A DNA stretch of 64,000 nt from Paramecium tetraurelia (lineage: Eukaryota), in assembly GCA_000165425.1 (NCBI GenBank), contig CT868025.1, positions 124,001 to 188,000 of the forward strand, written 5' to 3'. Numbering within the stretch: the stretch's first letter is position 1; the number at the start of each line of letters is the position of its first letter. The notes beneath the pieces were generated by a model, which made no database searches, had not been told where the DNA came from, and worked only from the letters and a program-made list of their open reading frames with translations. The position numbers and the translations under genes are program-made. Positions 31,853 through 52,477 of the stretch are shown one piece after another.

Positions 31853-32002
31853 NNNNNNNNNNNNNNNNNNNNNNNNNNNNNNNNNNNNNNNNNNNNNNNN
31901 NNNNNNNNNNNNNNNNNNNNNNNNNNNNNNNNNNNNNNNNNNNNNNNNNNNNNNNNNNNNNNNNNNNNNNNNNNNNNNNNNNNNNNNNNNNNNNNNNNNN
32001 NN
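31853..32002. other. Assembly gap (150 N)
   Basis: Run of exactly 150 N. Confidence 0.99.
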
Positions 32003-38300: not shown

Positions 38301-39621
38301 TTTGAAAAAGCTTAAAATAAAGAACTTCAAACATTTATATATTAGCATCTAATTCTATTAAGTCAAAATTTATTACTATTAGAATCAAAATAATATCAAT
38401 ATCAAAAAATTATAGAAGAAATAATTAAAATTGGAATTAATTAATGTGAATCTGAGATATCTTCTGAGAGCAGCAGTGAAGATAGTGTTTAAGGTTAAAA
38501 TCCTGAATAATAGTAAAAATAATAAAGCTAAACAGAAAAGAATGAACAAAAAGATGAATAAAAAGATATTTACATAGTTGCTGAATCAAAAGAATAATAA
38601 AAAGAAGAAGAATAATCAACAAAATAATAACAATAAGATGAATAATCAACAAAATAATAACAATAAGAAGAATAATCAACAAAATAAAAACAATAAGATG
38701 AATAATCGACAGAATAATAAAAAGAAGAATAATCTAATTAAATTCCCTAAAGTGATCTGACAATTCAATCGACTAGCGAGCAAAATACTTAACCATAAAT
38801 ATTGGAAAAAGAAGAGAATCAGAAAAGTGAAAAAATTGCATAAAATGATGAAGGTCCAAAAGAAATCAAAGTCAAAAAGTAGTTTAATAATTACAAAATA
38901 TCAGATTACAATTAGAAAAAAAATTTATATACAACTACCAATATGATTCTCTGGAAANNNNNNNNNNNNNNNNNNNNNNNNNNNNNNNNNNNNNNNNNNN
39001 NNNNNNNNNNNNNNNNNNNNNNNNNNNNNNNNNNNNNNNNNNNNNNNNNNNNNNNNNNNNNNNNNNNNNNNNNNNNNNNNNNNNNNNNNNNNNNNNNNNN
39101 NNNNNNNTGCTGCCCATGGTCGAAGGATTGGTGGGTGCAAATCCAAATAATTTTAATTAAAGAAATTATTATTGTTCCTAATAAGATAGAATTAATCAAT
39201 TAAAACATAATTTTACAATAGATGATTAAAGTCCTATGACGTATGTAAATTTTAGAAGCAAAATTAGTTCCTTTCCGATTGGAAACAAAATAATTAATGA
39301 GAATTTGATAAATATTGACAAATTAAAGAAGTAATATTTATGTATTATTTAGAATTTTGTAAAAATGTATTACTAATTCTAAATGTTAAGAGGTTCCAAG
39401 TGCATCTTATTCAATATTCAAAGAATTTGTATTTTTGTTGTAAAAAGTAAGCGATTTAGAATATGAACCGGAAAATAAGTAATCCATATATATAAATTAG
39501 ATAAATGTATGTTAATTAACAGCTTAAAGAAATTGAAAATAAATTAAAAGGATATAAAACTCATAAATAGAAAAATGATTAGATGACAAATCAGTTATCA
39601 AAGTTATTGAGCGGATTATGA
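32351..39621 (+). CDS. Very large SF1 UvrD-like helicase with TPR-like repeats (TRANK1/LBA1-like)
   Basis: VIGRSGTGKTT, YIDEVQDL, CGDSAQSI..GVGFRFSDL, LTKNFRSHNNILQLAN, TKGLEFDDVILYN, ELKMLYVCVTRAK. TPR-like helices follow at ~35490-36000. The model 3' of 37450 depends on uncertain introns and spans a gap. Confidence 0.85.
38611..38730 (+). repeat. Coding 30-bp tandem repeat, about 4 copies (EQSTKQQQQD/E)
   Basis: Unit aataatcaacaaaataataacaataaga(t/a)g at 38611, 38641 and 38671; diverged copy at 38701. Confidence 0.9.
38958..39107. other. Assembly gap (150 N)
   Basis: Run of exactly 150 N. Confidence 0.99.
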
Positions 39622-43590: not shown

Positions 43591-44134
43591 TTAATTAAAT
43601 TTTTGTTTACACTAAAATTTTTAAATGATATTGCATATGAGCAAATAAAGCTAAAAATAAATATGATCTATAATTTAAAAAATATATAAATATCCCATGT
43701 TATTTTTAAGTGCTCTTAGTTTAAGTTAACACTACCAGCACTTGTTATTTATCTATCAAGTCTAATGAAGAAGAATTTGTTTAAAACAATTTAAAGAATT
43801 AAAAAAAATAGATTTCATAAAAGATTTTTCACTATAAGAAATAAAATTCATTATTGATATCTAAAGACATCCAAAATCAAAGTTTAACTCTATGTTATAA
43901 ATTAAAAATATTAATTATTTATCTTAAATGATTGCTTATTTCTAAATCAACATTATAGAGATTATGGTGAATGTTTTGAGTAGAATTTTATCATTAAAAA
44001 TTTATATAATATAATAACTTTTGTTGATTTATGAGAGAGATAGTGAAAAGGAAAATGTTATTAATTAATTCTGAAAAATAGATATCGATTTTCGACTCGA
44101 AATTAAGTTTATTAAATATTAATCATATATTTGA

Positions 44135-45098
44135 ATGGATAATTTAAACGACGAAGAAATTTTTAATGATCGTGAGCGTATTGAGCCATTTGTCAAGGCA
44201 ATCACCAGGAATAAGCATTTATTTAAAGATAAAATTGTGTTGGATCTAAATGCAGGGATGGGATTGCTAAGTGTTTTGGCTTCATAATCTGGAGCAAAAT
44301 AAGTTTTTGCCATGAAAGCCAATTGTTATGCTGCTGAGATTATGAAATAGAATAACATTAAAAATGTTACATTAAAGAAAGAAAGCATTAAAGATGTGGA
44401 ATTAAATTGCAAAGTAGATATCATAATTTCTGCTTGGATGGGTAACATGCTATTTTATGGGGGATGTATATAAGAGGTGATATAAGCAAGGGATAAATAT
44501 TTAAATAAGGATGGATTCATTATGCCTGACAAAGGACAATTGTATCTATAATCAATTGAAGATAGCCAATATCGCAATTAGAAAATGAATTTTTGGTATT
44601 TTCAATTATAAATTTTATTTAGGAATTCAGTCTATGGAGTCAATATGAAATGGATGAAACAGTGGGTTGCAAGAGAGCCACTTATTGAGAGCATAAAGGA
44701 TGATTAATTAAATAGTGATGAATAGTTAATTTATGAGGTCGATTTGCAGACTTGTAAATTGGAAGACCTCAGTTTTAGCAATTCATACTAAGTAAAGATC
44801 AAGAGATAGGACTACGCAACTGGAGTCATTGTGTGGATGAAATACTCATTCACTTACACCCATTTGCCAATCCATGTTGTTATGGGTCCTACAAAGTCAC
44901 CTTTTTGGAAACCTGTCATATTGTACTTTAGAGAAGAATTGCCTGTTAATAAAGGCGACAAATTGCAAGGTTTTCAGAATTGTTTATTATGAATTAGGTT
45001 CATTAGCTGTGAAATTTGAATCAGACGAACTCTTGCAAATTAAGTTATCTGTACATATGTAACAATATAATTATGTATCATATTTTAAGTTAAATTGA
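44135..45098 (+). CDS. PRMT1-like protein arginine methyltransferase homologue with degenerate catalytic motifs
   Basis: NKHLFKDKIVLDLNAGMGLLSV, KVDIIISAWMGNMLFYGG, ARDKYLNKDGFIMPD, KMNFWNSVYGVNM, LEDLSFS. Two short introns; TGA at 45096-45098. Confidence 0.9.
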
Positions 45099-45113
45099 GT
45101 AAGTAAATATCAA

Positions 45114-47220
45114 TCATTATACTTTCATTCTTTTCACTATTTTTGCACTTTATTTATTTTAATTCACCAATCTAAAGGCCAACGGAGATGATCTTAATGA
45201 ATTATACAAAACAGTCTCTGTAATATTACGATTAACAGTTCTTCCTCTTACATCACATTCGGTATCTCTTCTTTTTGAACAAGATGAGTATGATTTCATT
45301 CTTTAAGCAGTGTATCTTGATTATAGACACTTTATTTCTTGAGTGTTCTATTGTGAATCACTTTGAGGTTGTTTTTGAATTTCTGCTGATCTGGTAAAGT
45401 AGGATAGCTATCTATTTAATTAATTGATGAGGAAAACTTTAATCTAGTCATTCTAATCTGCAGTAAAATAGGTTCTCAAACTGTTGATTGTGTCTAGAAC
45501 ACATTACTTCAATTGTTTAGTCAATAGTTTTGTCTACATATAGTCTTAAGCACTAGCTTTCGAATCAAGAATGGGTATTACTAAAGATGAATCACATTTT
45601 TAATCAAGTTTTGATTCTAATTCTTAAATAAACTTTAACTTTTAATCTATATCTGTAAGCTTATCCTCCTTTATCTAAGGCTTATTATTAATTACTATTA
45701 TCTATTAATTTAATTGATCAAATTAAGTTCTGAATTTTTTCGATTCCTCTTATAATTAAATTATCATCTAATTGAAATATTCCATTCTAATGTTAGTTGT
45801 GTCTGAAACCTGTATATTATTCTCTTGATATTTATTTACTTTTGGCAATTTTTATCTAATATCATCTATTTAGTTTTGCAATTCCTATATTCTAATATCT
45901 GATCTTTGATAAATTTTCTGGATCACATCAGAATTAATAAACGATCCCTCTCTTTAAAAATTCATCGACTTTCTATACATTCTTTGAGGAGATGGCTGGG
46001 TACTTTTCATTTCTTCTTAAGAAATTTCAACTCGTTTTGGACTTTCCCCATAGGTTACACTTTCGCCATCCTTTTGAATAAGTTAATGTTATAAATTTTC
46101 TATTTCTAATGTTTTTTGTTTGTTGAATTATTGAAATGAGACTTTTTATTCAAATATGGCCGCAGTTATAGATTCAAGTTTTTCATTTAGATATTCAGAA
46201 TCTCTTTGTAAACTTGAGGTTTTTTACATTGCAATTTACAACTCTTCCTTCATGACAACCTTCTGGAATTTAGAATTAACAACGTTTAATTATGATTTTA
46301 AGTCATTTACTTTTTAATTCTCATCTTTGAGTTGTTCCTACATTAATTTATATTCTTCTGTTATTTCTTTTTACATCATTAATATTTTCTCCGATAAGAT
46401 CTTACATATTTAGTTTACTCTATCTTCATATACTCTTTGATCATTTTTTGTAGCATACACTTTTAACTTAGTATTAGCTAGATCCTCAACCTTTTTATCA
46501 ACTAATTCACTTAAGACTTACATCTATTTATCTTTGATGATTTAAATGTTATCCTAAGCAATCCCTAATTATTATTTAGAACACATTTCTCCTTACAATC
46601 GATCTACTCTTTAATGAATTTAATTCTTGATATTATCTAATTCAATACTAGTTACAAAATCTCTCCTCATTAGATCTTAAGCTTTTGTCATTTCTGAATG
46701 ATCAATTTTTGAAGCCAACAACTATTCAAATTAATCCAGCCTATTTTTATAGTTTTAAGTTAATCTATCATTTTACAAGAGAATACCAGTGTATTCTTTA
46801 TATTTTTAATTCATTTCTTTCAAATTGAGTCTCATTTAATTGTTCATCTCTTTACTTTACTTAGCTTCCTCTAAAATACTTTGAAAATATATAATTAAAT
46901 ATGTACTTATGCATTTGATTGATGCAAGGTTGAATCTATTTAATCTCCACAGAGTGTCTGGTTAGGATTTCGTCATAATGAGAACTAAATTTTGATTGTT
47001 ATTATTCAATTGAGCTCAATCTTTCTTAGACATTTAATTAAGAGTTTAGTATTTAGATCGTATCACCATTCAAATCGACTCTTGAATTATTTGTTATAAA
47101 AACTTCCAAAGCTGACAATTTTTATTACATCTTGGAAATTTGATTAATATGAGGTAGAAAAGTATTGCTCAGTTATTCTATAGATTCCTCTAGCTTGATA
47201 ATTCGTAATTGCTCATTCAT
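45114..47220 (-). CDS. Hypothetical coiled-coil protein with a low-complexity C-terminus
   Basis: ATG 47220 (MNEQLRIIKLEESIEQL) with long Q/E/K-rich helical frames to TGA at 45114-45116. Internal splicing not fully resolved. Confidence 0.55.

Positions 47221-47770: not shown

Positions 47771-52477
<4,707 letters not shown>

Follow-up and report, generated by a model that had tools for sequence, protein, structure and literature searches.

The gene considered here lies in a 64,000-nucleotide stretch of Paramecium tetraurelia DNA (contig CT868025.1, positions 124,001 to 188,000; hereafter the window), where it runs on the plus strand from an ATG at 44135 to a TGA at 45096-45098 and encodes, in three exons and under the ciliate code, a protein of 302 amino acids. 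The product retains the scaffold of the protein arginine methyltransferase PRMT1 and lacks the features that mark an active type I PRMT, namely the double-E glutamates, the His of the THW loop and the signature of binding to S-adenosylmethionine (AdoMet). We have little doubt that the gene specifies a conserved and expressed PRMT1 pseudoenzyme with an independent origin. The fuller statement, according to which this PRMT1-derived pseudoenzyme is kept by selection and probably docks as a dead partner on active PRMT1, stands in our judgment at about an even chance of being right.

The PRMT1 scaffold and its active-site positions

Among structures in the Protein Data Bank (PDB), where 59 distinct sequences were matched, the best match to the product (P0046) is rat PRMT1 (3q7e_A), with an E-value of 2.3e-52 over residues 7-276. 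The Pfam model PRMT_C recognizes the protein at E 1.4e-36 (126 bits), placing it within the PRMT fold, and canonical Paramecium PRMT1 shares 39% identity and the same fold with it over some 270 residues. The canonical protein (P0359) passes the Pfam cut-offs for PRMT_C, PrmA, Methyltransf_25, Methyltransf_31, Methyltransf_11, PRMT5 and MTS, whereas P0046 passes those for PRMT_C and PrmA only, the latter marginally (25.6 bits against a cut-off of 22), and gives no match to Methyltransf_25, _31, _11 or PRMT5, models that P0359 matches above cut-off. Relative to canonical PRMT1, P0046 has a deletion of three residues after beta-2, and its net charge is approximately 0, as against -7 to -8 in the canonical core.

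Motif columns were counted, in rat PRMT1 numbering, over 16 full-length members of the family to which P0046 belongs (the dead family) and 28 other PRMT1-like proteins. Throughout the 16 family sequences the YFxxY helix is absent, His45 is replaced by Asp, and both Gly78 and Tyr148 are replaced by Asn. Glu129 of motif II has become Lys (11/16) or Arg (5/16); the first glutamate of the double-E loop, Glu144, is Ala (14/16) or Asp (2/16), and the second, Glu153, is Gly (9/16), Arg (5/16) or His (2/16); Met155 is Cys, Ser or Asn, and Thr158 is Glu (11/16) or Asp (5/16). In the THW loop, shorter by one residue, the Thr is always Pro and the His is Phe in 15 sequences and Tyr in one, with the Trp retained, while the equivalents of Arg54, Asp76, Gly80 and Gly82 are kept in all 16. 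The positions compared here are, according to Hashimoto et al., contacts of S-adenosylhomocysteine in mammalian PRMT1 and in ENZ, the active subunit of Trypanosoma brucei PRMT1 (10.1101/776112). From these replacements we infer that the product neither binds AdoMet nor catalyses methyl transfer.

A preliminary description of this DNA, made from its letters alone, had read an intact, spliceable PRMT1 homologue of about 300 residues with a dead double-E loop, degenerate THW, motif I and post-I segments, a well-kept dimerization arm and no visible N-terminal YFxxY helix. Every one of its motif readings holds in a HMMER alignment to rat PRMT1 and in further alignments, and the length and splicing that it predicted are borne out by transcripts. 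The window has a G+C content of 27%, and its reading frames stay open only if TAA and TAG specify Gln; 12 such codons occur among the first 278 of the gene. RNA evidence came from four runs (X17 to X20) placed on positions 43900-45300, with X17, X18 and X19 representing three studies; for these three the label "RNA" is the tool's guess. In each of the three, one contig spans each intron and shows its exact removal with no other difference, which shows that the contigs derive from spliced mRNA and that the gene model is right. A transcript, on whose existence the preliminary description had made its reading depend, is thus present in three studies.

The contigs begin at 44086 (X17), 44095 (X18) and 44111 (X19), one X18 contig (record 7) ends at 45121, and none of the four runs covers 43900-44040, consistent with a short 5' untranslated region (UTR). 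These starts, together with an in-frame TGA immediately before the ATG, leave neither an upstream exon nor a YFxxY helix to be added to the protein. Exon 1 encodes the alpha-Y helix, the degenerate motif I, the post-I Lys, the dead double-E loop and the first half of the arm, and the nine codons of intron 1 have no counterpart in PRMT1 in the alignment. The spliced product is identical, letter for letter, to P. tetraurelia XP_001430763.1 (GSPATT00033218001, UniProt A0BXU8), which databases name only as "uncharacterized" or as [quoted passage not shown]. The fourth run, X20, a declared RNA-seq set labelled as a different organism, contains pieces identical to window positions 44593-44749 and 44827-45056 that retain both introns, and these represent either unspliced RNA, carried-over DNA or a difference of labelling.

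Family, constraint and ancestry

Word-based searches recovered relatives in six clusters at 90% identity, all from Paramecium, and these hold the 16 full-length members, distributed over five species of the P. aurelia complex (three each in P. tetraurelia and P. octaurelia, four each in P. primaurelia and P. pentaurelia, two in P. sonneborni), or two to four per genome. The expectation of the preliminary description that relatives would share the loss of both glutamates and of THW is realized in every full-length member. Beside the full-length genes of P. sonneborni, on the same scaffolds, stand two fragmentary family models, P0007 (152 aa) and P0053 (62 aa), which are likely annotation duplicates. 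Members divide by length: a 305-aa type and a 302-aa type, the latter with two sub-branches, are approximately 72% identical to each other, and branching of this kind would be expected after the intermediate and the recent whole-genome duplication. Orthologues in the dead family are 84-99% identical, compared with 94-99% for canonical PRMT1 over all pairs, orthologues and ohnologues together, and recent ohnologues are 86-87% identical as against about 95%. Invariant sites across the 16 sequences number 153 of 302.

In the pair P0046/P0050, 39 of 302 residues differ. McGrath et al. report a median dS for paralogues of the recent duplication of 1.0 within species and 1.7 between species (PMC4199370), from which dN is roughly 0.06 and omega roughly 0.03-0.06, an estimate and not a measurement, as the dS is genome-wide and not the gene's own. 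Taken together, these comparisons support the view that the family has been retained under purifying selection since before the last two whole-genome duplications.

The attribution to ciliates at large in the preliminary description proved too wide, for the family was found only in the P. aurelia complex and in three short fragments. The latter came from a search for shorter proteins, and one of them is more divergent (74% identical) yet carries SPFWKP. No member was found in P. caudatum, Tetrahymena or any other named ciliate, which may reflect database content, and when metagenome contigs were scanned, first with P0046 and then with alignment A1, none of the 97 and 130 pattern matches obtained encoded a relative.

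In an exhaustive profile search of 1.84 billion representatives the family forms a single cluster at 50% identity, scoring 655 bits, with the next match at 242 bits. A careful tree of 39 rows unites it (100/100) on a stem 1.33 changes per site long, placed within a group of 29 rows (100/99) that also holds the canonical PRMT1 of Paramecium and Euplotes; most other rows are metatranscriptome proteins, so that the label of a ciliate PRMT1 group depends on these two named taxa. The tree does not resolve the sister of the dead family inside this group. Forcing the dead family and Paramecium PRMT1 into a clade costs 2.3 units of log-likelihood (p-AU 0.12), so that the clade is neither rejected nor demonstrated. 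In structure searches the E-value of P0046 falls from 2.3e-52 for rat PRMT1 to 1.1e-32 for T. brucei ENZ (6dnz_A) and 5.3e-16 for PRO, the inactive prozyme of that enzyme (6dnz_B). These values and the placement within the 29-row group rule out common descent with the kinetoplastid PRO, and uphold the independent evolution that had been proposed; on sequence grounds the dead family is a separate PRMT1 offshoot.

Possible pairing with canonical PRMT1 and its alternatives

PRMT1 forms a head-to-tail dimer in which the arm of each subunit lies on the Rossmann helices of the other, and mutations that break the dimer are described as abolishing both AdoMet binding and activity (PMC10908127). The same source reports Tyr202 and Met206 of rat PRMT1 to be critical for dimerization (PMC10908127). 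The equivalents of both are invariant in the dead family, and the arm as a whole, whose good preservation had been noted from the first, is identical to that of canonical Paramecium PRMT1 at 21 of 36 residues, as against 38 of 135 in the remaining beta-barrel. A model of the complex, as called for in the preliminary description, paired P0046 with residues 36-359 of P0359 and scored 0.73, the best of three controls scoring 0.00; among solved complexes 51 of 78 attain that mark, among mismatched pairs 2 of 108. Runs shared at least 90% of contacts, the partner had a pLDDT (predicted local distance difference test) of 90, and the geometry is that of a canonical PRMT, with arm to Rossmann face in both directions.

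Within the dead family, 10 of the 12 contact positions of the arm never vary and 8 of the 12 match canonical PRMT1, compared with 5 of 17 invariant positions on the receiving face (Mann-Whitney p 0.003, post hoc), where the 302-aa and 305-aa types differ systematically. In eight canonical PRMT1 proteins of Paramecium, 12/12 arm and 16/17 face positions are invariant, and in 38 diverse canonical-like PRMT1s mean conservation is 0.67 for the arm and 0.75 for the face (p 0.28). A self-dimer should constrain arm and face together, so the asymmetry in the dead family argues for a heterodimer: an invariant arm, an invariant face on the modelled partner and a relaxed reciprocal face favour this arrangement over pairing with itself. 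It is the strongest evidence, if indirect, for the heteromeric subunit that the preliminary description had proposed.

An additional feature of the arm is Trp164, which is invariant in the family and occupies the position of Tyr190 in T. brucei ENZ, a residue that Hashimoto et al. hold partly responsible for the failure of ENZ to self-pair (10.1101/776112). Among 287 other proteins with a readable arm, out of 357 PRMT1-like, this position is Cys in 181, Val in 33, Pro in 20, Ala in 19, Tyr in one and Trp in none. The helix residue opposite to it by homology is Ile both in canonical PRMT1 (Ile117) and in the dead protein (Ile69). The idea that Trp164 blocks self-pairing was not adopted, as with Ile in both partners the sequence predicts no clash specific to a self-dimer; it is kept as a lead.

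On the favoured reading, P0046 is a well-folded PRMT core that probably neither binds AdoMet nor methylates arginine, and its conserved arm would most likely dock on the Rossmann-fold face of active PRMT1 (GSPATT00025365001 or GSPATT00031546001) in the canonical head-to-tail manner, leaving the dimer one active site. In this setting the dead subunit would adjust the stability, oligomeric state or output of PRMT1 or its choice of substrates, and activation in the manner of a prozyme, retargeting and damping are all conceivable directions of its effect. Such a role as a non-catalytic PRMT1 partner is plausible, with chances that approach even. That a mixed dimer need not cost activity is suggested by Rossi et al., in whose work C. 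elegans PRMT1 retains approximately 90% of activity when one subunit of the dimer carries E153A (PMC13571421). A more elaborate version is a ciliate prozyme evolved independently, with dead 302-aa and 305-aa subunits whose invariant arm, tipped by a Trp where a residue of the trypanosome enzyme prevents self-pairing, would force them into heterodimers with PRMT1 that have one active site, and whose variable faces and remodelled barrels would confer copy-specific regulation or targeting; we put this forward as speculation that is rather unlikely to hold in full.

Several observations weigh against the partnership. The model score may have been learned from PRMT dimers of known structure, and a high score does not single out the family member that binds. 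Over the modelled interface as a whole, constraint is no stronger than in the rest of the protein, with 17/32 residues invariant as against 136/270 elsewhere, and 12/32 identical to canonical PRMT1 as against 106/270. The comparison of arm with face was picked after the data were seen. No motif is missing from canonical Paramecium PRMT1, which carries Cys where ENZ has Tyr190 and bears no mark of needing a partner; the activated model of Rossi et al. carried two SAM (AdoMet) molecules (PMC13571421); and literature searches found no experimental, co-expression or interaction data for the gene. Finally, the barrel, for all its drift from PRMT1, is invariant within the family at 73 of 135 residues, and such drift joined with conservation could signal a new function unrelated to PRMT1.

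The barrel is also an argument for the alternative of a non-catalytic protein independent of PRMT1, which would form dimers with itself or its paralogues and, through a remodelled surface of barrel or pocket, offer a different partner a scaffold, binding module or decoy. The pseudo-active-site loops (SAWMGN.LFY and SPFWKP) are nearly fixed in the 16 sequences, the neutral net charge has removed an acidity suited to basic RGG substrates, and the length of the stem suggests a burst of change after duplication, all of which this alternative accommodates. It is harder to reconcile with the asymmetry between arm and face, which is unlike that of a pure self-dimer, and it comes without a known candidate partner; a decoy that binds arginine through the pocket is made unlikely by the loss of both pocket glutamates. 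We consider an independent role of this kind a minority prospect, doubtful though by no means negligible. A different possibility accepts docking on active PRMT1, and with it the evidence from the model and from arm and face, and makes the mixed dimer less active, whether for want of AdoMet binding in the dead half or for its missing N-terminal helix, so that the dead subunit titrates activity down. The apparent self-sufficiency of the canonical enzyme, which does not require that a dead partner help, agrees with this, as do the two bound SAM molecules of the activated model (PMC13571421), one of which the dead protein probably cannot supply. The activity kept by the engineered one-site dimer of C. 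elegans (PMC13571421) tells against it, and that a pure inhibitor should persist in two to four copies after two genome duplications is presumably not the simplest expectation; such a damping subunit seems improbable.

Residual enzymatic activity, as a methyltransferase or otherwise, through non-canonical residues could appeal to the retained equivalents of Arg54, Asp76, Gly80 and Gly82 and to the marginal PrmA match. It must contend with the replacement of 11 cofactor or substrate positions, three of them from acid to base (Glu100 to Lys, Glu129 to Lys or Arg, and Glu153 to Arg in five sequences), and with the absence of the helix that closes over AdoMet, and we regard it as very improbable. 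Equally remote, or slightly more so, is the prospect of a duplicate that is decaying into a pseudogene. Its one recommendation is a rate of change between ohnologues about 2.6 times that of canonical PRMT1 (13% against 5% difference), which is outweighed by 16 intact full-length copies in the same length classes in five species, by the proportion of invariant sites, by spliced transcripts and by survival of the copies through two genome duplications. A pseudogene already formed was likewise discarded, given the intact frame, the spliced RNA and the 16 intact relatives.

Gene features, known systems and significance

The features of the gene are collected in the following table.

Features of the PRMT1-like pseudoenzyme gene, in window coordinates
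Feature	Position	Strand	Basis
Transcribed span, with short 5' and 3' UTRs	44086..45121	+	RNA contigs
In-frame TGA immediately before the ATG; fixes the short N-terminus	44132..44134	+	sequence, frame listing
Exon 1 (residues 1-153 plus 2 nt)	44135..44595	+	alignments, RNA contigs
Motif I remnant VLDLNAGMG (PRMT1 VLDVGSGTG; first Gly to Asn39, 16/16)	44237..44263	+	alignments
Lys61 at the post-I acidic site (rat Glu100, which holds the AdoMet ribose); VIGIE to VFAMK	44315..44317	+	alignment
Dead double-E loop SAWMGNMLFYGG (PRMT1 SEWMGY..LFYES; Glu144 to Ala100, Glu153 to Gly109)	44429..44464	+	HMMER and further alignments
Dimerization arm KMNFWNSVYGVNM, residues 140-175, split by intron 1	44552..44686	+	alignments
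Intron 1, 27 nt, GT..AG	44596..44622	+	one contig per run (X17, X18, X19) omits 27 letters at 44595
Exon 2: remaining dimerization arm and beta-barrel, including SPFW for THW	44623..44969	+	alignments
Trp164, family-invariant, at the arm position of T. brucei PRMT1 ENZ Tyr190 / PRO Pro235	44651..44653	+	alignments
SPFW for the THW loop (Thr to Pro, His to Phe, one residue shorter)	44897..44908	+	alignments
Intron 2, 28 nt, GT..AG	44970..44997	+	contigs of X17, X18 and X19 omit 28 letters at 44968, a placement uncertain by 1 nt
Exon 3: C-terminal strands up to ...YFKLN and the TGA stop	44998..45098	+	alignments; identity to P0046

Downstream, a minus-strand frame at 45114-47015 encodes a Gln/Lys-rich, coiled-coil-looking protein without a Pfam match. 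Over the 3' end of this gene, at 45128-45300, X18 and X19 each contain, beside a perfect contig, a second one with 25 differences in 173 nt, which is probably from an ohnologue of that gene. An ordinary ABC transporter gene (ABC_tran 8e-30, ABC_membrane 3e-19) lies at 48389-51142 on the minus strand, and two runs of 150 N, at 31853-32002 and 38958-39107, mark assembly gaps or masked stretches. Elsewhere in the genome, P0363 (GSPATT00031546001), the canonical PRMT1 ohnologue, has 351 residues instead of 359, a short unrelated stretch replacing a conserved Rossmann segment; the cause would seem to be an intron wrongly called in the gene model, not biology.

The closest parallel to the Paramecium protein is PRO of T. 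brucei PRMT1, formerly called TbPRMT3 (PDB 6DNZ, chain B; PMC12925635), likewise a paralogue of PRMT fold without the double-E and THW residues (PMC12925635). PRO, too, retains a hydrophobic dimerization arm, is conserved throughout its clade and occurs alongside an active PRMT1 (10.1101/776112), and both are dead PRMT paralogues kept by selection, which in Paramecium is judged from sequence. They differ in that PRO has a long N-terminus, of which residues 41-52 are needed for substrate binding, and lacks the eta-2 stretch, whereas the Paramecium protein starts at the alpha-Y helix and keeps that stretch (NKHLFKDK). The bulky residue of the arm is also differently placed, belonging in T. brucei to the active subunit that does not self-pair (Tyr190) and in Paramecium to the dead one (Trp164), where the active protein has Cys. 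Partner binding and activation are proven for PRO, while pairing in Paramecium is modelled only. Canonical type I enzymes (rat and human PRMT1, yeast Hmt1 and Paramecium P0359) share the fold, the PRMT_C domain and the arm with the dead protein, in which all catalytic and most AdoMet-contact residues are replaced. The dead C-terminal modules of PRMT7 and PRMT9 resemble it as inactive PRMT modules that pair with an active one and are needed for activity (PMC10908127), although in those proteins both modules share one chain, whereas in Paramecium the dead one has a gene of its own. In DNMT3A/B-DNMT3L, METTL3-METTL14 and PRMT1-PRMT2, an inactive or weak member regulates an active methyltransferase (PMC10908127); as these are other families, the analogy is one of logic only.

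Dead PRMT1 copies are not peculiar to these organisms. Of 149 other PRMT1-like representatives, 131 have a readable double-E loop, and 20 of these lack one glutamate (13) or both (7), which makes the Paramecium case less surprising and the question wider; dead PRMT1 paralogues seem, on these sequence counts, to recur across eukaryotes and may be common. One of these 20 clusters includes "PRMT1-B" of Musca domestica. P0058 and P0060 form a sister pair (100/100 in the 39-row tree), the first with an intact double-E loop and the second with SEWMGNFLLYGSK and LTYW and without YFxxY; P0060 shows the Tyr-to-Asn and Glu-to-Gly changes of the Paramecium family, with a separate origin. The source of this pair is AT-rich and, by an EKGF N-terminal motif, probably a ciliate. 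Both glutamates are gone from P0078 (CNWMGYFLLQNSF), whose cluster has 27 members and whose motif I reads VLDINSGIG. P0084, its sister in a tree of 89 rows (support 83) and not in the 39-row tree, is the only one of the 287 proteins with an aromatic residue, the Tyr counted above, at the position of ENZ Tyr190.

Literature on the Paramecium family was found neither by subject nor by gene identifiers, in searches that did not extend to subscription papers and supplements. Papers on PRMT pseudoenzyme paralogues were kinetoplastid or unrelated only; no paper had both Paramecium and arginine methyltransferase in its title or abstract; PRMT1 with Tetrahymena or ciliate gave nothing relevant among the matches listed; and a 2026 review of protozoan PRMTs does not mention ciliates. 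A proven enzyme-prozyme pair of PRMTs was found described only in kinetoplastids, where it is treated as a peculiarity of the lineage and as an idea for drug targeting.

A dead paralogue of PRMT1 that arose independently for a second time would suggest that evolution has more than once resorted to giving this enzyme an inactive twin to pair with. Paramecium offers a free-living model with easy RNA interference, in which the dead family has been kept in two to four copies through two genome duplications. A dead PRMT1 partner would also fit the recent finding that one working site suffices for the PRMT1 dimer, and a Paramecium prozyme system, if true, would represent a natural use of the half-of-sites reactivity of PRMT1.

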